Assembly (NCBI GenBank): GCA_965203905.1
Contig: CBDBDQ010000005.1
Location: 7,648,001 to 7,712,000 of the forward strand
Length of the DNA: 64,000 bases
Origin: Spirochaetia bacterium
GTDB taxonomy: Bacteria > Spirochaetota > Spirochaetia > SZUA-6 > Bin103
Direction of reading: 5' to 3'
Below, one piece after another: positions 24,803-43,516 of this stretch. Both the position numbers and the translations under genes were made by a program. The notes beneath the pieces were generated by a model. That model did not search any database. It was not told where the DNA came from and saw only the letters and a list, made by a program, of their open reading frames with translations. Every line of letters begins with the position of its first letter. Position 1 is the first letter of the stretch.

Positions 24803-25732
24803 TTAGCGTTTCGTTTTCGCGGTGCCGTAACTGCCGTCTCCGCCGCGCAGCCGGGGGTCGAGCAGGTCCCTGAGGGCATCGCCGAACATGTTGAGACTGT
24901 ACACGACAATCGTCAGGAACAACCCCGGCCAGAGCGCCAGCCAGGGCGCCTGCTCCATGTACTGTCGCCCTTCCGTGCTGAGCAGGCTGCCCCAGTCGGG
25001 ACTCCCGGGGGGCAGACCGAAGCCGAGGAAACTCAGCGAAGCCAGGCTCAGGATGTGGCCTCCGATGCTGATGCTGAAAACGATGATCACGACCGGCATG
25101 ATATTGGGCACGACATGCCGGACCAGGGTTCTGACCTTGGGCTTGCCAATCGCCTCCGCCGCCAGAAAATAGTCATTCTCCTTGATCGCGATCACGGCGC
25201 TCCTGATTACTCGCGAGCCGCCGATGCCGCCGCTTATCCCCATGACCAGTATGATCTGTGGTATACCCGGCCCCACTATCGACATTATGGTCAACAGCAG
25301 CAGCAGGCCCGGAAAGACTATCCAGGCATCGACAAACCTCTGCACCAAGATGTCGAACTTGCCACCGAGGAATCCGGAAGTGCCGCCGATCAGGGTACTG
25401 ATCACCGTACTCAGAGCGGTGATGGAAAGACCGATCAGTATCGAAAGACGACCCCCCAGGATCAGGCGGCTCAGGAAGTCTCGGCCGACGTGGTCTGTCC
25501 CCAGGAGATACTGGGCGGATGAGCCCTGAAACCGGTCTCGCAAGTGGATTTCGGAAGGGGGGTAGGGGGTCAGCGCATCGGCGAAGATCGCCACCAGGAT
25601 CCAGATCAGGATGATCAACCCGCCGAACGCCCCCAGGGGCTTCTCCTTGACCAGCCGGACAAGGAACTCGGTCAGTCGGCCAAATCGTTTGGGCTCACCG
25701 ACGGCGGCTGGCACCGCTGTGGCATGGCGCAT
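24803..25732 (-). CDS. Peptide/nickel ABC transporter permease (DppC/OppC-type)
   Basis: LGTDHVGRD, RHVVPN, GDALRDLLDPR. Confidence 0.92.
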   Translation of the reverse strand: MRHATAVPAAVGEPKRFGRLTEFLVRLVKEKPLGAFGGLIILIWILVAIFADALTPYPPSEIHLRDRFQGSSAQYLLGTDHVGRDFLSRLILGGRLSILIGLSITALSTVISTLIGGTSGFLGGKFDILVQRFVDAWIVFPGLLLLLTIMSIVGPGIPQIILVMGISGGIGGSRVIRSAVIAIKENDYFLAAEAIGKPKVRTLVRHVVPNIMPVVIIVFSISIGGHILSLASLSFLGFGLPPGSPDWGSLLSTEGRQYMEQAPWLALWPGLFLTIVVYSLNMFGDALRDLLDPRLRGGDGSYGTAKTKR

Positions 25733-25755
25733 TGTTATGCTTTTCTCACCAACCA

Positions 25756-26721
25756 CTATCTATACCGCACCCTGGGGTCCAAGTAGGGATACATCAGGTC
25801 GGTCATGAGAATGCTCACCATCACTATGGAGGCGTAGAACATGTTGACTCCGGACACCACCGGGTAGTCTCGGAGTTGCAGCGCATTCAGCAGGAGGCGG
25901 CCGATCCCCGGCAGGTTGAAGATGTGCTCCATGATCACCGAGCCTCCGATCAGGAGCGGCAACTGCATGCCGATCAGGGTCACGACCGGGATCAGCGCAT
26001 TCTTGATGGCGTGTCTCACAACCACCACCCGCTCGGTGAGCCCCTTGGACCAGGCGGTGCGGACATAATCCAGCCGGAGCACTTCCAGCATCGTGGTGCG
26101 CATCATCCGCATGGTGCTGGCAGAAGCGGCCGTCCCCAGAATCAGGCTGGGGATGAGGAGCACGCCGAGATTGCCCAGCGGGTCTTCGCTGAGCGGAACC
26201 CACCTCATCGGGGGCGACCAGCCCCACCAGATGGCAGGGAAGATCATCACCATCAGGGCCAGCCAGAAGTTGGGCGCGGCCAGACCGAGGATGGCGAGGG
26301 AGCGCCCGGCGTAGTCGGCGACGCTATCCTGGCGCACCGCCGAATAGATGCCGACCGGCAGCGCGATCACCAACCCGATGACGATGGCCAGGATACCCAG
26401 TTCCAGGGTGACCGGCAGTCTCTCGATGATCCCCTTCTCCACCGGCCAATTCCCCATCAGTGACGTGCCAAGGCTGCCGTGCAGGAAAATACCTCCCATC
26501 CAGCGTCCATACTGCACCCAGACCGGCACGTCCAGTCCCAGCATGCGCTCCAGCGTTTCCCGGTCGAACCCCTCCCCGGTACCGCCGGCCACCACCGTCA
26601 TTGACTCCATGACGTCGATCACGTCACCGGGGATGAAGCGCACCGAGAGAAACACGATGATGCTCAGCAAGAACAGGGTGGGGATGATCAGTAATAGTCG
26701 CCTGATGATATAGGCTCTCAT
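25756..26721 (-). CDS. Peptide/nickel ABC transporter permease (DppB/OppB-type)
   Basis: MRAYIIRRLL, DYVRTAWSKGL, RHAIKNALIP, LDPRVRY. Confidence 0.92.
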   Translation of the reverse strand: MRAYIIRRLLLIIPTLFLLSIIVFLSVRFIPGDVIDVMESMTVVAGGTGEGFDRETLERMLGLDVPVWVQYGRWMGGIFLHGSLGTSLMGNWPVEKGIIERLPVTLELGILAIVIGLVIALPVGIYSAVRQDSVADYAGRSLAILGLAAPNFWLALMVMIFPAIWWGWSPPMRWVPLSEDPLGNLGVLLIPSLILGTAASASTMRMMRTTMLEVLRLDYVRTAWSKGLTERVVVVRHAIKNALIPVVTLIGMQLPLLIGGSVIMEHIFNLPGIGRLLLNALQLRDYPVVSGVNMFYASIVMVSILMTDLMYPYLDPRVRYR

Positions 26722-26752
26722 CTCGCACACCTCATCGCGGCGTAATCCCGAA

Positions 26753-26800
26753 GTGGACCGGGGCAGGCAGGCAGTATTGCTGCGCTGCTGCCCGGTCCAC
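26753..26800 (-). terminator. Intercistronic stem-loop between SBP and dppB
   Basis: GTGGACCGGGGCAG...CTGCCCGGTCCAC inverted repeat, no U-tract. Confidence 0.55.
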
Positions 26801-26822
26801 GTGCCTACTTCCAGTCGGCCTG

Positions 26823-28616
26823 CTACTGGCTCATGGCCTTCAAGTCCTGGTCAATCCAGAGACGGGCGTAGATGGGAGCGCTGTTGCACTGGTTGCACAA
26901 CTCGCCTTCACCGTTGTAACCGATGACCCATGGCTGCGCCGCGGTGAACTGCGGGATCTTGGGACCCCATATGATCTCGTGCTTCTCTATCATGAGCATG
27001 TCGCACTCTTTGACCAGCCGCGCCTCCTCCTCATAGGTGGTGGCGGCGACGATCGCTTCATGCAATGCCGTTTGCGCCGGATCATCCGGAACCAACATGT
27101 AATGCGTCGCATTCGTGTAGCACATGCCGGCAGGGGGATAGTCCAGGCCCAAGAACCCCATCGATAACCCGGGCCAAGTCGCTTCCCTGGCATGGACCAT
27201 CCACGTAGGATGGTCCATTGGGTCCTTCTCCGCGGCAATGCCAACCTCGGCCAGATAGGCAATGACGATGTCGTAATAGCCCGAATCGTGGTAGGAACCG
27301 ACGAATACCATGGGCAGCTCGAATCTCGTGCCGTCCTCGCCGCGCGGATACCCCGCCTCGTCGAGCAGCCGTTCGGCACCCTCCGGGTCGTAGCGCCAGT
27401 ACTGCTTGATCTCCTCGGGCCACTCTTCGAACGGGTTGTTGTACCCGCCGAGGATACCGTCTCCGATGCGCCCCTGGGGCTCCCACTTGCCATGACCCCT
27501 GAAGTAGGTCTCGTTGACGGTCTCAAGATCCAGGGCCATCTGTATGGCGTGCCGCACCCGGATGTCGTCGGTGGGCGAGGGCACGAACGGATTGTACGCC
27601 CGGTAACTGTAGTTCGACCGATAATCCCACGGGTAGAGCCTGATTTCGGGGTTGGTCTCCGCCAGGCTTTCCGCCATTTCGACATTGGCAAAGGCAGCCG
27701 CCGTGATGAGCATGTCAAGCTTGCCCGAACGCAGTGCCGCGGCGACGGTTGCCGGTTCCCGAATGATCAGGTTCGTCAACTCGTCGGTATAGGGCAAGCG
27801 GTTCTCGGGGTACTTCTCGTCGGTGCCCCAGTAGTTGGGATTCCTGGTGTAGGTTATCGAGCTCTCCTCGACCCAGTCCGTTATCTCATAGGGCCCGGTG
27901 CCCACCAGGTTCTGCCAGTCCGCTCTGTTGATGTTGCCGTCTCGCTTGATTACCTCCGGGGGCATCATGTGAGCATTGTTGGCGATCTTCAACGGCCCAT
28001 CGAGGATTGGATGCCGCAACTTGAACACCACCGTCCTCTGGTCGGGGGCCGTTACCGACTCGAGCGGCAGGGCCGCGCTGCGCCCCCCCGTATAGCTAGG
28101 GCTCGGTTCGCTAAAGCCACTGCCCAGACCGAGAAAACGGTGATAGTTGAATACGATGTCATCGGCAGTCAGCTTCCGACCGTTCATCGGTTCCTTGTCG
28201 TGCCAGTGAACGCCCTCGCGGATGCGGAATACGTAGGTCAGCGGGTCGGAAACGTCCCAGCTCTCCGCGAGCTGACCGGTCAGGACAGAGGTCGGCAGAT
28301 ACACCGGCGCAAAGTCGAACGTGTCCCGGCTTATTCCCCAGTCCGCGATGGCGAGCGTCTCGTTGACGCCGCCGATGAAATACGCCGCCCCGCAGCAATA
28401 GGCTGCGTCTATCGAGTTCTCTGCATATCCCGGCTGGGAATAGGTAATTGTTCCGCCGTATTGTGGCGCCGTCACCATCTTTCCGGTGGTGGGGTCGGTC
28501 ACCATTTCCTTCTCGGCGGCGGCCGCCGGTGCCTCTTCGCTGGCAGCGGCCCAGAGGCCGGTCGCGGTCAGAACGAGAACCAGCGCAACCGCGAAGGTCT
28601 TTGTTGCAATGTGCAT
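26823..28616 (-). CDS. Peptide/nickel ABC substrate-binding protein (SBP family 5)
   Basis: Signal peptide, LAESW, GTGPY, NPNYW, RVRHAIQMALD, LLDEAGY. Confidence 0.92.
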   Translation of the reverse strand: MHIATKTFAVALVLVLTATGLWAAASEEAPAAAAEKEMVTDPTTGKMVTAPQYGGTITYSQPGYAENSIDAAYCCGAAYFIGGVNETLAIADWGISRDTFDFAPVYLPTSVLTGQLAESWDVSDPLTYVFRIREGVHWHDKEPMNGRKLTADDIVFNYHRFLGLGSGFSEPSPSYTGGRSAALPLESVTAPDQRTVVFKLRHPILDGPLKIANNAHMMPPEVIKRDGNINRADWQNLVGTGPYEITDWVEESSITYTRNPNYWGTDEKYPENRLPYTDELTNLIIREPATVAAALRSGKLDMLITAAAFANVEMAESLAETNPEIRLYPWDYRSNYSYRAYNPFVPSPTDDIRVRHAIQMALDLETVNETYFRGHGKWEPQGRIGDGILGGYNNPFEEWPEEIKQYWRYDPEGAERLLDEAGYPRGEDGTRFELPMVFVGSYHDSGYYDIVIAYLAEVGIAAEKDPMDHPTWMVHAREATWPGLSMGFLGLDYPPAGMCYTNATHYMLVPDDPAQTALHEAIVAATTYEEEARLVKECDMLMIEKHEIIWGPKIPQFTAAQPWVIGYNGEGELCNQCNSAPIYARLWIDQDLKAMSQ

Positions 28617-28825
28617 AACTCACTCCAGGTGTTTGATTCTGAGAGTAGTGCGTAGCGAATTGCCGCACCCTGCGCTCTCAGCGCCCGCAACGCGGGCGGC
28701 AAACAGAGACGACAATGTGAATCTGTGTAGCGTGAGGCTGTGTCGCGCGCGGCGTGCGACTCATGGATTTACGCCGCGCGCGCGTGTGGTTCTTTGAGTA
28801 TCAATCTGCACCACCTGTGCGCCGG
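28617..28825 (-). ncRNA. Candidate structured cis-regulatory leader RNA, copy 1
   Basis: Stems and blocks shared with 39535..39736: GCGCGCGGCGT/ACGCCGCGCGC, GCCGCCCGCGTTGCGGGCG, TGAGAG/CTCTCA. Confidence 0.55.
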
Positions 28826-29003
28826 GTTGACCGGCAGGGCCGGCGGTCGGTTCAGCGACGGTGAGTCGGGGAACGGGGTGCCAAGACGGTTGCGGTGGTC
28901 GATGAACGAACGTGGACTGAGCCGACGCCACACGGAGCCGGCGGCTTGCCAGGCGCTGAAGGCGAAGGCGCCCGCAAGGCGAGCAACCCGTGCGGTTAGT
29001 GAT

Positions 29004-29102
29004 CTACGGGATGTACGAAAGTCCCAGGGGGGGGGATGTACCGGCGGCGTCACCGGCAAACCGGTCACTGCGCTGGCTGTCGTCGTGCCGCATCATCAGC
29101 AT
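29004..29102 (-). CDS. Putative leader peptide (32 aa) with C9 tract, copy 1
   Basis: MLMMRHDDSQRSDRFAGDAAGTSPPLGLSYIP; GGGGA upstream; homologous to 39254..39376. Confidence 0.45.
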   Translation of the reverse strand: MLMMRHDDSQRSDRFAGDAAGTSPPLGLSYIP

Positions 29103-29123
29103 CCGTCGATCCCCGACGATTGG

Positions 29124-29152
29124 ATTCTCCCATGCCGGTGGCAGACTGTCAA
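29124..29152 (-). promoter_or_regulatory. Sigma70-like promoter for SBP operon 1
   Basis: TTGACA-17-GAGAAT with extended TG; positionally conserved with 39206..39233. Confidence 0.55.
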
Positions 29153-39179: not shown

Positions 39180-39205
39180 CGCCGGAGGCTCCCCCGGACG
39201 GTGAC

Positions 39206-39233
39206 TTGACGGCAGGCGGCGGCGTGGTAGGAT
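39206..39233 (+). promoter_or_regulatory. Sigma70-like promoter for SBP operon 2
   Basis: TTGACG-16-TAGGAT with extended TG. Confidence 0.55.
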
Positions 39234-39253
39234 ACGGGTCAGGGACTAAACGG

Positions 39254-39376
39254 ATGCGGATGAATCGCCATGACGACTGTCAGCGCGGTGGCCGGCTGGT
39301 GACCCAGCCGGTGGCTTCTACCCGAGTTCTCCCCCCCCCAAGATACCCTATAATTATTTATCAAATAAGCAATTAA
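39254..39376 (+). CDS. Putative leader peptide (40 aa) with C9 tract, copy 2
   Basis: MRMNRHDDCQRGGRLVTQPVASTRVLPPPRYPIIIYQISN; AGGGA upstream. Confidence 0.45.
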   Translation: MRMNRHDDCQRGGRLVTQPVASTRVLPPPRYPIIIYQISN

Positions 39377-39534
39377 GCGCTCTACCGAGAGCACCATACG
39401 CACCCCGGCTCACGCCGTCGCCTTCACCGCCGCCACTACTTCCGGTGGCGCCGGTTCGGTCCATCGCCATGGATCGTCAGCCCTTCTGCACTCTTCCACG
39501 TATCACTCTTTTCGTCCGCGACACCCTGCCGTTT

Positions 39535-39736
39535 GCCGGCATACAGGAGGCACACGAGTGAGACTCAGAGAACCGTAGGCGCGCGCGGCGTGAGCCCGGG
39601 GCGACCCGGCCGAGTCACACGCCGCGCGCTCCGCAAAATGACTCGAGCTGGCCGCCCGCGTTGCGGGCGTGAGAGCAGCCAGGGAGCGGCAATCCGTTCC
39701 GCAATACTCTCAAGAAATCCACCAACGGAGTCAAGT
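39535..39736 (+). ncRNA. Candidate structured cis-regulatory leader RNA, copy 2
   Basis: Same stems as 28617..28825, with a longer loop in the first hairpin. Confidence 0.55.
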
Positions 39737-41536
39737 ATGAAACCTGTAAGAACCACATTGACCTTCGCGGTCGCGTTGGTCCTGGTGCTGACCGCGACCG
39801 GCCTGTGGGCCGCTGCGGCAGAAGAGGAGCCGGCAGCCACCGCAGAGAAGGAGATGGTGCGCGACCCGTCCACCGGCGAGATGGTCGAAGCCCCCCGCTA
39901 TGGAGGGACCTTCACCCATGCCGAGAGGACCGGAGCCGACACTCCTGACACCTGGTTCAGCGGCGGTCAGGCGGCGACGTTCTTCATCAGTACCGTTCTC
40001 GAGAAGCTCAGCGTCGGGAACTGGGCGATCGACAGAGAGGAACATGGCTGGAATACGACCAGCGTACCTCTCTCTGCCTTGAAAGGGGCGCTGGCGGAAA
40101 GCTGGTCACAGCCTGACCCGCTGACCTATGTCTTCAACATCCGGCAGGGCGTCCACTGGCACAACAAGGCACCGATGAACGGTCGGGAGCTGACCGCCGA
40201 TGATATCGTGTTCAACTTTCACCGCTATCTGGGGCTGGGCAGTGGCTTTACCGAGAGCAGCCCGCGTCTCGGGCAACTCGCCGCCTTCTCATTCGAATCG
40301 GTAGAGGCCACCGACGAATGGACGGTGGTCATGAAGCTCAAGGAGCCACGCCTGTTTGCGCTGGAGATTATCATCGACCAGTACAGCAACTGGATGTACC
40401 CCCCCGAGGTCATCGAGGAACACGGCGACGCCCGGGATTGGAGGAACCTGGTCGGCACCGGGCCCTATGAGCTGACTGACTACGTCGAGGGCGTCTCTGC
40501 TACCTTCGACAAGAATCCTGACTACTGGGGCTCCGACGACAAGTACCCGCAGAACCGCTTGCCCTATATTGACCAGATAACGGGCCTGATTATGCCAGAG
40601 GGAGCGACCCGCCTGGCGGCACTGCGCGCGGGAACGCTTGATTACATAGGTACTCCCGGCAACACCCAACTGAGGACGATCGACCAGGTAGAGAGCGTCC
40701 AGCGCATCAGCCCCGACCTGGTGGTGTGGCAATATCCGTATCGGTCAGATAATTCTTTTGGCGTCAACGTCCAGAAGCCGCCCTTTGACGACATCCGGGT
40801 GCGCCAGGCAATGCAGATGGCACTCGATCTCGACACGATCTATGCGACCTATTACAAGGGTTATGGATCTACCAGGCCTCAGGGGGTCTACGGCGAAGAG
40901 CTGAAGGGGTGGACGACCCCCTTCGAAGAGTGGCCCGAAGCGGTCCAGAAGGTCTATACCTACGACCCGGCGGGGGCAGAAGCGTTGCTCGATGCGGCTG
41001 GGTATCCACGCGGCGCCGACGGTACTCGCTTCAAGGCCGTGTTGAGCCACCTCGAGCGGTACGACACCACGTTTGCGGAGTTGGTCGCCGCGCAGTGGGG
41101 TGAGGTCGGTGCCGATGTCGAGGTTCGGGTAACACCGGTGCCTGAGTTTGTCTCCCTCAGAACTGAGGGACTATTTGAGATGATCTCCGCGGAGTTAGGC
41201 GGGCTTCCGAGTCCTTCCGTAGCCGGGCTGGGCGCATACTACACGCACACGTCCTGGGCCCATTCCAACGTGTCTGACCCGGTTTATGACGCCATGTTCG
41301 AAGCCCAACAAAACGCCACCACCGTCGAGGAATCGCGGAGGCTGACGAGAGAGGGATACCTGTACGCGCTGGAGCGGCACTGGAGCATATGGGGCGGCGA
41401 AGTCCCACAGTTCAACGTGAGCCAGCCGTGGGTCAAAGGCTACAACGGGGAAATCTGGTTGGGTGTCGGTCAGCAGGACACCTTCTTCGCCCGTCTCTGG
41501 ATTGATCAGGATCTCAAGGCAGAAATGGGCTTTTAG
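39737..41536 (+). CDS. Peptide/nickel ABC substrate-binding protein (SBP family 5)
   Basis: Paralogue of 26823..28616; MKPVRTT start, GGAG RBS. Confidence 0.92.
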   Translation: MKPVRTTLTFAVALVLVLTATGLWAAAAEEEPAATAEKEMVRDPSTGEMVEAPRYGGTFTHAERTGADTPDTWFSGGQAATFFISTVLEKLSVGNWAIDREEHGWNTTSVPLSALKGALAESWSQPDPLTYVFNIRQGVHWHNKAPMNGRELTADDIVFNFHRYLGLGSGFTESSPRLGQLAAFSFESVEATDEWTVVMKLKEPRLFALEIIIDQYSNWMYPPEVIEEHGDARDWRNLVGTGPYELTDYVEGVSATFDKNPDYWGSDDKYPQNRLPYIDQITGLIMPEGATRLAALRAGTLDYIGTPGNTQLRTIDQVESVQRISPDLVVWQYPYRSDNSFGVNVQKPPFDDIRVRQAMQMALDLDTIYATYYKGYGSTRPQGVYGEELKGWTTPFEEWPEAVQKVYTYDPAGAEALLDAAGYPRGADGTRFKAVLSHLERYDTTFAELVAAQWGEVGADVEVRVTPVPEFVSLRTEGLFEMISAELGGLPSPSVAGLGAYYTHTSWAHSNVSDPVYDAMFEAQQNATTVEESRRLTREGYLYALERHWSIWGGEVPQFNVSQPWVKGYNGEIWLGVGQQDTFFARLWIDQDLKAEMGF

Positions 41537-41552
41537 GCTCCTTTAGGCTTGT

Positions 41553-41584
41553 TCCGGGGTGAGCTTGCTCCGGGGTGAGCTTGC
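41553..41584 (+). repeat. 16-bp perfect tandem duplication
   Basis: TCCGGGGTGAGCTTGC x2. Confidence 0.85.
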
Positions 41585-41586
41585 AC

Positions 41587-41629
41587 GAGGAAGGGGGCTG
41601 GGAGGCGCGGTTCTCCAGCTCCCTTTCTC
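41587..41629 (+). terminator. Intercistronic stem-loop between SBP and dppB
   Basis: GAGGAAGGGGGCTGGGAG...TTCTCCAGCTCCCTTTCTC. Confidence 0.5.
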
Positions 41630-41651
41630 ATTGAACGACGAGGCGTGTGAC

Positions 41652-42611
41652 ATGAAAGCGTACATCATCAGGCGTCTGTTGCTGATGATCCCCACCCTGC
41701 TCATATTGACCGTGCTGGTCTTTCTCGCGGTTCGGTTCATCCCGGGCGACATCATCGACCTTATGATCGGGCAGATGCAATATCAGTATGACGAGACGTT
41801 CGACCGGGAGGCGCTGGAGCGTATGCTGGGCTTGGACCTGCCGGTCTACGTGCAGTATGGGCGCTGGCTCGGCGATATCCTCCTGCGCGGCACGCTTGGC
41901 GCCTCATTGGTTGGCGTTATTCCGATAGAAGAGCGGATACTGGCCCGATTGCCGGTAACCATCGAGCTGGGTGTCATGGCAATCGTGATCGGGCTCGTGA
42001 TAGCCCTGCCAGTCGGCATCTATTCGGCGATACGCCAGGATACGGCTGCCGACTACACGGGGCGCGCCGCGGCCATCATCGGCCTGGCCACGCCCAACTT
42101 CTGGCTGGCTCTCATGGTCATGATCTATCCTTCGATCTGGTGGGGCTGGGTGCCACCGATGCGGTGGGTTCCGTTCGCCGAAGACCCGCTCGGGAATCTT
42201 ACGCTGTTCTTCATTCCCAGCCTGATCCTGGGGACGGCGGGTGCGGCCGGCACCATGCGGCTGATGCGCACCACGATGCTGGAGGTGCTCAGGCAGGACT
42301 ATGTCAGAACGGCGTGGGCCAAGGGTCTGAAAGAGCGGGCGATCATCGTGAGGCACGCCCTCAAGAATGCGCTCATACCGGTGGTTACCCTGATCGGCCT
42401 GCAGCTGCCGCTCCTGGTGGGTGGATCGGTCATCATCGAGAACATATTCAACCTGCCGGGGTTGGGCCGTCTGTTCCTGAATTCGCTCAATAGCAGAGAC
42501 TACCCGGTGGTCTCCGGACTGAACCTGGTGTTCGGCGTCGCGGTGTTGGGGAGCAATCTGATGGTCGACCTGATCTATCCCTATCTTGACCCCCGAGTCC
42601 GGTATCAATAG
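41652..42611 (+). CDS. Peptide/nickel ABC permease (DppB-type)
   Basis: MKAYIIRRLL, DYVRTAWAKGL, LDPRVRY. Confidence 0.92.
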   Translation: MKAYIIRRLLLMIPTLLILTVLVFLAVRFIPGDIIDLMIGQMQYQYDETFDREALERMLGLDLPVYVQYGRWLGDILLRGTLGASLVGVIPIEERILARLPVTIELGVMAIVIGLVIALPVGIYSAIRQDTAADYTGRAAAIIGLATPNFWLALMVMIYPSIWWGWVPPMRWVPFAEDPLGNLTLFFIPSLILGTAGAAGTMRLMRTTMLEVLRQDYVRTAWAKGLKERAIIVRHALKNALIPVVTLIGLQLPLLVGGSVIIENIFNLPGLGRLFLNSLNSRDYPVVSGLNLVFGVAVLGSNLMVDLIYPYLDPRVRYQ

Positions 42612-42613
42612 AA

Positions 42614-43516
42614 ATGCGTATGGCTCGAGGGGAATCATCAACCAACGGTGAGCGCAGGGGGTCGCTGCGGTGGGGAGATTTCTTCGTCAGGCTGGTCAAG
42701 CGGAAGCCGTTAGGCACCATCAGCGCGGTGATCGTATTGATACTGATTCTGGTCGCCATCTTTGCCGACGTGTTGGCGCCCTATCCCTACGACGAAATAC
42801 ACCTGATCGACAGGCTTCAGGGCCCATCGGCGCAGTATCTCCTGGGCACCGACCAGGCGGGGCGAGACCTCTTGAGTCGCCTTATCTTCGGGGCGCGCGT
42901 TTCGATGCTCGTCGGTTTGGCAACGACCACGCTCAGTGTTGTGATCAGCACCGTGGTCGGCGGCACCGCCGGATTCCTGGGGGGTAGATTCGATATTCTG
43001 TTGCAGAGATTTGTCGATGCCTGGATGGCGTTCCCGGGGCTGCTCCTGTTGCTGACGATGATGTCCATCGTGGGGCGGGGTGTGCCCCAGATAATACTGG
43101 TCCTGGGGATCGCCGGAGGCATCGGCGGCAGTCGCGTAATCAGGGGCGCCGTGATCGGCATCAAGGAGAACGTGTATTTTCAGGCGGCCGACGCGGTTGG
43201 CGCCTCGAGAGTGAGAACATTCATGCGCCACGTGGTGCCGAATGTCATACCTATCGTGATCATAACATTCAGCGTGAGCATCGGCGGCGTAATCCTGGCG
43301 CTGGCTTCCCTGGGCTTCCTCGGGTTCGGTCTGCCTCCCGGGATTCCTGATTGGGGAGGTCTGCTCAGCCGGGAGGGACGCGAGTACATGGAGATGGCGC
43401 CGCGGCTGGCGTTCTGGCCCGGTCTGTGCCTGACTATCACCGTCTTCAGCCTCAACATGTTCGGCGACGCCGTGCGAGACCTGCTCGACCCGCGGCTGCG
43501 AGGCGCGGGAAACTAG
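42614..43516 (+). CDS. Peptide/nickel ABC permease (DppC-type)
   Basis: LGTDQAGRD, GDAVRDLLDPR. Confidence 0.92.
   Translation: MRMARGESSTNGERRGSLRWGDFFVRLVKRKPLGTISAVIVLILILVAIFADVLAPYPYDEIHLIDRLQGPSAQYLLGTDQAGRDLLSRLIFGARVSMLVGLATTTLSVVISTVVGGTAGFLGGRFDILLQRFVDAWMAFPGLLLLLTMMSIVGRGVPQIILVLGIAGGIGGSRVIRGAVIGIKENVYFQAADAVGASRVRTFMRHVVPNVIPIVIITFSVSIGGVILALASLGFLGFGLPPGIPDWGGLLSREGREYMEMAPRLAFWPGLCLTITVFSLNMFGDAVRDLLDPRLRGAGN

Follow-up and report, generated by a model that had tools for sequence, protein, structure and literature searches.

A shared leader of spirochaete family-5 SBP operons as a probable phase-variable translation switch

Two leaders and their operons

The window, a stretch of 64,000 nucleotides from a Spirochaetia genome, contains two operons in which a family-5 SBP gene is followed by two permease genes. 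No ATPase gene was seen adjoining the SBP-permease genes in either operon (24803-28616; 39737-43516), and the two SBPs are 49% identical. An earlier note on this DNA had described a series of blocks upstream of both SBP genes, and had read them as a long noncoding leader that is under selection and regulates an expanded transporter family. Every block that it lists was found, in the same order and at the positions given below, in both copies.

Copy 1
29152 to 28616, minus: order of blocks, namely TTGACA (29152), GAGAAT (29129), ATG (29102), C9 (29035-29027), CGCCTTCGCCTTCAGCGCC (28970), GTGGCG..GTCCA (28931), CCCTGCCG..GCAC (28839), ACTCAAAGAACC (about 28800), hairpins, GGAGT (28626) and SBP start (28616)
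29124..29152, minus: predicted sigma70-type promoter, TTGACA-17-GAGAAT with extended TG, 10/12 matches
29004..29102, minus: leader ORF as currently read, 32 aa, ending at a TAG stop (OFF), with SD-like GGGGAT at 29114-29109
29027..29035, minus: C9 run, proposed slippage site
28996..29006, minus: double stop, TAG 29006-29004 and TAA 28998-28996, closing two of three frames
28769..29026, minus: third frame (putative ON track), 85 stop-free codons from the C-run, in the frame of the mini-ORF and ending at its stop
28817..28826, minus: putative antisense group II intron 5'-end scar of about 10 nt abutting SD-B, inferred from paralogous leaders and too short for an Rfam hit
28769..28816, minus: SD-B (AGGTGG) and mini-ORF TTG-ILKEPHARAA-TAA
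28745..28781, minus: hairpin H1, whose 5' arm ends at the mini-ORF stop
28638..28720, minus: predicted H-type pseudoknot domain, partly decayed (fold z -1.39; hit of model R1 with E 2e-6)
24803..28626, minus: ribosome-binding site, family-5 SBP (26823-28616) and permeases (25756-26730, 24803-25756)

Copy 2
39206 to 39737, plus: order of blocks, namely TTGACG (39206), TAGGAT (39228), ATG (39254), C9 (39331-39339), further blocks (39413, 39445, 39524), GGAGT (39727) and SBP start (39737)
39206..39233, plus: predicted sigma70-type promoter, TTGACG-16-TAGGAT with extended TG
39254..39376, plus: leader ORF as currently read, 40 aa, ending at the conserved TAA (OFF)
39331..39339, plus: C9 run, proposed slippage site
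39351..39376, plus: double stop, TAA 39351-39353 and TAA 39374-39376, closing two frames
39340..39561, plus: third frame, 73 stop-free codons, its TGA (39559-39561) overlapping the mini-ORF start (GTGA)
39493..39544, plus: putative decayed antisense intron 5'-end scar, maybe reaching back to about 39470, aligning to a paralogous leader with an RF02005 hit
39545..39578, plus: SD-B (AGGAGG) and mini-ORF GTG-RLREP-TAG (39558-39578)
39581..39644, plus: hairpin H1, possibly a first pseudoknot (GAGTCA at 39612 pairing with TGACTC at 39639)
39648..39711, plus: predicted H-type pseudoknot, CTGGC/GCCAG crossing GAGAGCA/TACTCTC, with hairpins in both loops
39727..43516, plus: ribosome-binding site, family-5 SBP (39737-41536) and permeases (41559-42611, 42614-43516)

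The promoter is the single sigma70-type hit in the leader region of each window copy (shuffle mean 0.2). In paralogous leaders an ATG stands about 40-60 nt downstream of the -35 box, and the leader ORF crosses a C-rich repeat before it meets a conserved stop (TAA, TAG or TGA) with CCG after it. In both window copies one frame of the C-run reaches the mini-ORF and the other two are closed within 40 nt; since the third frame runs on to the mini-ORF, each copy would be one slip from read-through. Both are currently out of frame (OFF), with intact SBP genes. In copy 2 no frame is closed over a short stretch past the conserved stop, which weakens the case. The term 'noncoding' does not suit this DNA, as the leader holds three translated-looking elements (the head ORF, the stop-free track and the strong-SD mini-ORF), and the C9 run, which had been listed as one more conserved block, is likely the switch instead.

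Sponge metagenomes are among the sequencing runs that contain DNA of the window; all four runs compared with it consist of assembled contigs. Contigs from an RNA run match the SBP gene of copy 2 at more than 99%, and one of them, at 96% identity, spans H1 and continues into this gene. These contigs (assembled, not reads) cover 39581 into the SBP gene and, weakly, the bin 39188-39348, and none covers 39349-39509 or the upstream gene, gaps that are no proof regarding RNA ends or termination. The RNA contigs are thus consistent with transcription of the 3' module, and are uninformative on starts, ends and levels. DNA contigs are broken on both sides of the leader head, as any repeated sequence would give, and the breaks are therefore not evidence of variation in the C-run.

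An open frame and a repeat across the leader family

Parts of both window leaders match about 30 further places in the genome, which are paralogous upstream regions, and 44 of the 47 genome hits of a profile of the 3' part end at most 300 nt upstream of an SBP start. The likeness of the leaders is therefore not due to chance. Identity over the whole leader is 58% between copies 1 and 2 (299/517), near the 53% identity at four-fold sites in the SBP body of the same pair (72/136; chance 34%), so that pairwise identity alone is not evidence of selection: the leaders do stand above the synonymous sites, but not clearly, and the comparison is uninformative for this pair. Selection on a long 5' leader is borne out by frame openness, covariation and repeat enrichment, and the leader is real and under selection. 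It is also common to an expanded SBP family, as had been proposed, with dozens of copies per genome before one family-5 SBP clade. The earlier note recognised no known riboswitch or T-box in the leader, and we agree, having found no Rfam match for it; within the window nothing reached the gathering score, and only chance-level hits appeared at E up to 10. As read from the sequences, the overall anatomy is a promoter, a leader ORF over a C-run or 7/8-mer repeat, two frames stopped, a third open to the mini-ORF, and a predicted pseudoknot by the ribosome-binding site of the SBP gene.

The open frame was examined in 109 of 206 pseudoknot-bearing leaders that passed the anchors, the remainder being without a recognisable head or cut short. 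The frame rule was set on 72 distinct leaders (of 143 pseudoknot-bearing ones) and was fixed before it was applied to a held-out set, in which 37 of 63 further loci passed. No stop interrupts the predicted frame before the mini-ORF in 65 of the 72 leaders (shuffles 28.5±3.7; reverse strand 14.7 per frame), and in 35 of the 37 held-out leaders (shuffles 12.2±2.6; reverse strand 5.0). A second frame is closed between -15 and +50 nt of the stop motif in 62/72 and 32/37 leaders, respectively. Among the 100 open tracks, 63 are fused to the mini-ORF, 25 are in the frame whose stop overlaps the mini-ORF start, and 12 are in the third frame. Leader copies are homologous and are swapped between genes, and these counts overstate their independence; when the leaders are clustered at 85%, the track is open in 75 of the 82 representatives, and 77 different track lengths occur. 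A simulated single mutation event leaves the track open 52-74% of the time, and single events are thus a weak filter.

The track does not behave like a protein gene. In the open frame its pN/pS is 1.25 (23 sequences), which argues that stop-free continuity is kept and not the peptide, and the reading frame of one and the same DNA block varies from copy to copy. The head is under mild constraint, with a pN/pS of 0.68 in the ATG frame versus 1.16 and 1.04 in the other frames, and with stop codons in 1 of 55 blocks. A conserved small protein was rejected on the grounds of pN/pS and frame switching.

The repeat at the start of the track is concentrated in these leaders. The chromosome has 28 C-runs of at least nine, and half of these (14) fall within the leaders, which make up 0.3% of strand space; among the others, two precede other close SBPs and two are in leader heads cut off by intron insertion. 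A C7 or longer run stands just before the stop motif in 69/109 leaders, many runs being interrupted or very long, and in 18 leaders a 7- or 8-mer array takes its place. Of six 7/8-mer arrays that reach at least four copies, five are found upstream of SBPs, and 19 of 20 leader repeat units of at least 4 nt are not multiples of three; among other arrays with units of 5-12 nt, 6/8 have units divisible by three. The lone 6-mer unit is probably the array upstream of the copy 1 promoter.

Both predicted states occur among the copies. In the 109 leaders we called 46 ON, 43 OFF at the motif and 15 OFF elsewhere (13 earlier, 2 later); five, which have no start, were uncalled. Poly-C lengths in assemblies may be wrong. 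The 7/8-mer leaders nevertheless show both states, with 8 ON, 9 OFF at the motif and one OFF earlier, and for these errors in homopolymers are no explanation. Seven of 11 near-identical leader pairs, drawn from four groups, differ in state through the tract; in one example C6 (OFF) faces C7 (ON), with 0/80 and 2/78 mismatches in the flanks. Length variation was seen between near-identical leaders only, in assembled contigs. At the orthologous sites checked in relatives the neighbouring genes match, the match ends before the leader and the cassette is absent. A pattern scan of metagenomes returned one locus, in which the frame is closed 32 nt past the motif.

Several repeat-bearing loci lie apart from the scored leaders or depart from their usual form. 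At G000:C5:3237955 (minus strand; G000 is the source genome), outside SBP leaders, TTGACC and TACTCT are separated by a 17-nt spacer that is mostly a C13 run, as in classical phase-variable promoters. A C22 run at G000:C5:2839143 (minus strand) is likewise outside the scored leaders, with a family-5 SBP-like gene at 2839432 on the opposite strand. Promoter and head occur as two to four tandem repeats, each about 128 nt long, at G000:C5 near 3635750-3636060, 6002850-6003240, 7568070-7568330 and 7737190-7737700, and these head-to-tail units give stacked promoters and short ORFs.

The downstream module, intron remnants and the history of the cassette

In paralogues SD-B, a strong Shine-Dalgarno sequence, and the mini-ORF stand 100-190 nt upstream of the SBP gene. 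The mini-ORF mostly reads M-ILKEPHARAA and ranges from a bare start-stop to 11 or more codons; its first six codons have a pN/pS of 0.41, against 0.69 and 1.23 in the other frames (37 variants). In the window subtype it is followed by H1 and by two crossing stems, which end a median of 14 nt before the SBP Shine-Dalgarno sequence. H1 is 97.5% paired, and the extra stem of a possible first pseudoknot has only 2 double-sided changes, which is weak.

The two crossing stems carry compensatory changes and are a predicted H-type pseudoknot. In window-type copies (A3, n = 51) 94.6% of positions pair and 12 pairs are changed on both sides, against 3.4±1.3 in shuffles. In older-type copies (A2, n = 49) 82% of cells pair, with 55 double-sided changes against 34±4 in shuffles; stem 2 is 91% paired, with 4/8 pairs changed on both sides, and stem 1 has 6/14, the number of such pairs in A2 being not above shuffles (68/500). 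The structures were derived from the tested sequences, and slid controls therefore favour them. Variants without the loop-1 hairpin (L075, L042, L089) keep both stems with a loop of 1-4 nt, which points to H-type geometry. A covariance model recovers both window copies. Apart from stem positions capable of G.U pairing, few bases of the pseudoknot loops are invariant. In one subtype, opening stem 2 lowers the predicted accessibility of the Shine-Dalgarno sequence from 0.64 to 0.38, with a fall of more than 0.3 in 24/54 copies; in the window subtype there is almost no effect (0.66 versus 0.62; 4/62). For SD-B the predicted accessibility averages 0.34, a value that had no control and on which no conclusion is built. 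We regard the pseudoknot as a candidate RNA motif that is absent from Rfam. Two deletion variants were seen, at L140 (G006:C32) and at G000:C5:4847230-4847299: one fuses the promoter to the pseudoknot, and the other is without the 3' half of the pseudoknot, the SBP gene being intact.

Leaders have also been entered by a group II intron (Rfam RF02005, group-II-D1D4-6), of which full and partial copies lie antisense with their 5' end abutting SD-B. A D1-D4 match to RF02005 was present in 7/7 paralogous loci scanned, and an RT ORF was read by eye in L231; full-length introns with an RT ORF lie antisense against SD-B at L231 and L232 (G000:C5:5100550-5102550; 7566040-7567650). In the window RF02005 gave no Rfam hit, the scars there being too short to score. 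The block around CCCTGCCG proved to be an intron junction, at which copy 1 keeps a scar of about 10 nt and copy 2 one of 50-75 nt. Part of CCCTGCCG..CCGGC..AC is native; it is joined to the 5'-end scar of the intron, and the match between the copies is partly coincidental. The intron is a parasite of the leader and not a component of the switch.

The intron offers a view of the track under disturbance. The two full-length antisense introns of the source genome close the track at the junction; of the leaders with internally deleted remnants, 14/15 are open, and 25 of 26 informative remnant segments lie in a stop-free frame. One antisense frame of the intron is stop-free over its whole length of about 2 kb, which eases this result, and some of the breaks are strain indels; the nominal chance product of 1.5e-7 is for these reasons too small.

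The source genome contains 143 ORFs resembling the window SBPs, 49 of them in a close clade. Pseudoknot covariance hits number 29 in G000, 74 in G001, 57 in G004, 99 in G005, 36 in G006, 7 in G007, 5 in G008 and 1 in G003. Of 13 sister-genus genomes, one has a single marginal hit (E 1e-4); there is none in 150 other genomes of the phylum or before SBP homologues of other lineages. Judged by these searches, the leader appears to be restricted to one Spirochaetia genus, bar the marginal hit. In G009 and in G010 the clade is represented by a single SBP, whose leader is short and plain and gave no pseudoknot hit, and a leader of G008 (L353) has promoter, start-stop and pseudoknot only, with no repeat module. 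This suggests a layering in which a plain promoter may have been joined by the mini-ORF and pseudoknot and then, as the family expanded, by the repeat switch. The near-twins of SBP 2 in L152 and L348 (91-93%) and L349 (90%) have different leader subtypes and N-termini, which indicates that leaders were exchanged between SBP genes. Cassettes were also gained, lost and hit by mobile elements.

Other rearrangements and relatives were met in the course of these comparisons. In L349/L253 (G004:C4:1056100-1058760) a transposase-like insertion of about 2.5 kb splits the leader inside the mini-ORF, before an SBP 90% identical to SBP 2. A split near the 5' end leaves each of two close SBP paralogues (G000:C5:5138728-5140629 and 7734880-7736800) as two ORFs, the cause being either gene breakage or assembly errors. 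In two lower-GC genomes (L154-L223) the same SBP clade is expanded, with long modular leaders made of repeated segments of a Shine-Dalgarno sequence plus a short ORF and with no pseudoknot match. Same-clade SBP genes at L164, L168, L172, L215 (Dehalococcoidia) and L183 have a G7-G9 run in the spacer between -35 and -10; such runs occur in 4/10 Dehalococcoidia loci and in 1/36 others scanned, and these poly-G spacers are possibly a separate route to phase variation in unrelated bacteria.

Interpretation of the leader

What the sequences display is the anatomy, a selected open frame, no protein constraint, repeat enrichment, both states among copies and pseudoknot pairing. The reading we consider probable is phase variation of the leader ORF by repeat slippage, with an output probably via Rho, so that every SBP-permease operon would have in its leader a phase-variable switch of translation. 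Ribosomes would start just past the promoter and cross the unstable repeat, be it poly-C or a 7-/8-mer array. In the OFF state two of the three frames would hit the conserved stop within about 50 nt; in the ON state the third would carry ribosomes over 70-1000 nt of C-rich RNA to the strong-SD mini-ORF. Slipped-strand changes of repeat length would shift a lineage between the states, independently for each importer. We infer that the OFF state would silence the operon, just as we infer repeat slippage within populations. A regulatory role in the transporter family, which the earlier note had assigned to the leader, is accordingly what we too consider most likely.

Regarding the output, neither window copy has an intrinsic terminator on the sense strand, Rho is encoded in the genome, and the tracks are C-rich (42% C, 30% G) and weakly folded, with YC steps at 0.21 versus 0.14 in SBP genes. 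Together these make Rho termination on the uncovered track the leading candidate, to which we give about half of our confidence, C-richness alone being no proof of a rut site. The next candidate is lost translational coupling to the mini-ORF. An intrinsic attenuator at H1 was rejected for want of a U-run (the 8 nt after H1 contain a mean of 2.4 T in 54 copies), and protection from RNase J by a stabilising Shine-Dalgarno sequence and structure is not favoured, since the genome of G000, 98.7% complete, gave no RNase J. Downstream, the mini-ORF together with the pseudoknot seems to be an older module, and it may set translation of the SBP gene or mRNA stability.

Other explanations deserve weighing against this one. 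RNA polymerase slippage or ribosomal frameshifting on the C-run might make it a rheostat, its length tuning expression with no heritable switch. Slippage on homopolymers is established, the run sits just before the stop motif in 69/109 leaders, and many runs are interrupted or very long. The 18 leaders with 7-/8-mer arrays at the same place are a better fit to slipped-strand mispairing of DNA, and we think a rheostat unlikely, the two readings being not exclusive. It is equally improbable in our view that a long leader ORF is simply needed for expression and does not switch, with functional copies in frame and out-of-frame copies reflecting assembly errors or dying cassettes. Of the 91 clean calls, 46 (51%) are indeed ON, more than the third that free slippage would give, and the gain, loss and disruption of cassettes would suit decay; yet OFF states occur in the 7/8-mer leaders, OFF leaders retain open tracks and intact SBP genes (both window copies among them), and this account gives no reason for repeats at that place or for two frames being stopped together.

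Main control might instead lie with the pseudoknot, as a ligand-sensing riboswitch, the upstream blocks being duplication relics. The pseudoknot covaries, lies a median of 14 nt before the Shine-Dalgarno sequence of importer genes, occurs without the repeat module in one G008 leader (L353) and, in one subtype, affects accessibility when stem 2 opens (0.64 to 0.38); whole-leader identity near synonymous identity would also fit relics. It has, however, no Rfam match and is found in one genus only, bar one marginal hit; few of its loop bases are invariant, the window subtype is nearly without the accessibility effect, one ligand would be unsuited to about 50 diverged SBPs, and the open frame and repeats would be left unexplained. 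We hold this to be a shade less probable than the two preceding accounts. Least credible by some distance is that the long ORF encodes a genuine small protein and is phase-varied for the sake of that product. The mild coding constraint of the head (pN/pS 0.68; a stop in 1/55 blocks) and ON products of 68-273 aa would agree with it; the track pN/pS of 1.25, the reading of one block in different frames and the tolerance of antisense intron debris do not.

The switch we favour resembles several known systems in part. In the pil1 locus of Streptococcus gallolyticus, a repeat in a leader ORF sets the frame and hence the stop, and longer translation turns the operon on (PMC3894217). Both have a repeat unit not divisible by three within an upstream ORF after the promoter. 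In pil1 an intrinsic terminator lies close to the stop, whereas none was found in the spirochaete leader, and two of three frames are ON, against one of three here. Unlike in pil1, a ribosome in the spirochaete ON state would have 70-1000 nt to travel before it met a second mini-ORF and a pseudoknot, and the repeat type is interchangeable; pil1 serves two pilus loci of a pathogen, and the spirochaete leader dozens of nutrient importers of a symbiont. The lack of a terminator and the opposite ON ratio make the spirochaete leader a variant of the pil1 type, not a member of it.

Rho-dependent attenuators controlled by upstream ORFs (tnaC, speFL, mgtL, cruR) are described in a review as systems in which a ribosome on the leader shields C-rich RNA from Rho and in which a ligand is sensed by ribosome stalling on a conserved peptide; the phase-variation entries seen in the table of that review are DNA inversions (fim, flgB) or CsrA-based (PMC12360218). 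The likeness is that the spirochaete genome encodes Rho and that the leader is C-rich and folds weakly. In contrast to these attenuators, the peptide of the spirochaete track is unconstrained and the input is apparently a random change in DNA length; no conserved arrest peptide or sensor codons were found in the leader, the track having a pN/pS of 1.25 and the mini-ORF a variable length. Contingency loci, in turn, carry the repeat in the coding 5' end of the gene itself, for example the poly-C of Neisseria siaD with Rho polarity. They share homopolymer slippage, one ON frame in three and a premature stop followed by polarity, but the spirochaete repeat is placed in a dedicated and otherwise meaningless upstream ORF, so that the SBP gene stays intact. 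The repY-repZ region of IncI-alpha/IncB plasmids combines a leader peptide with a pseudoknot. Here too a short ORF lies beside a pseudoknot that may be able to free a downstream ribosome-binding site, whereas the spirochaete pseudoknot is local and, as far as tested (no Rfam hit), unrelated in sequence. Our literature search, which lay outside most subscription papers, returned no description of the spirochaete leader, and an earlier description is possible.

A wider picture can be drawn tentatively, and we would not yet rely on it as a whole: genome-wide, independent and random ON/OFF switches for 50-100 importers per cell, built from an ORF selected for being stop-free, a double-stop gate, a swappable repeat and a Rho output, set upon a new and possibly metabolite-sensing pseudoknot, with leaders exchanged as cassettes and a separate poly-G route in unrelated bacteria. 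Most known cases of phase variation concern surface antigens of pathogens. If the proposed switch is real, a sponge symbiont would have a large repertoire of nutrient uptake under phase-variable control; the cells of a clone could then divide substrates among themselves, or be spared the expense of producing 50-100 binding proteins together. The leader would also hold a regulatory ORF selected solely for having no stop, of which the intron remnants would be a rare natural test; the parts of the leader are portable.
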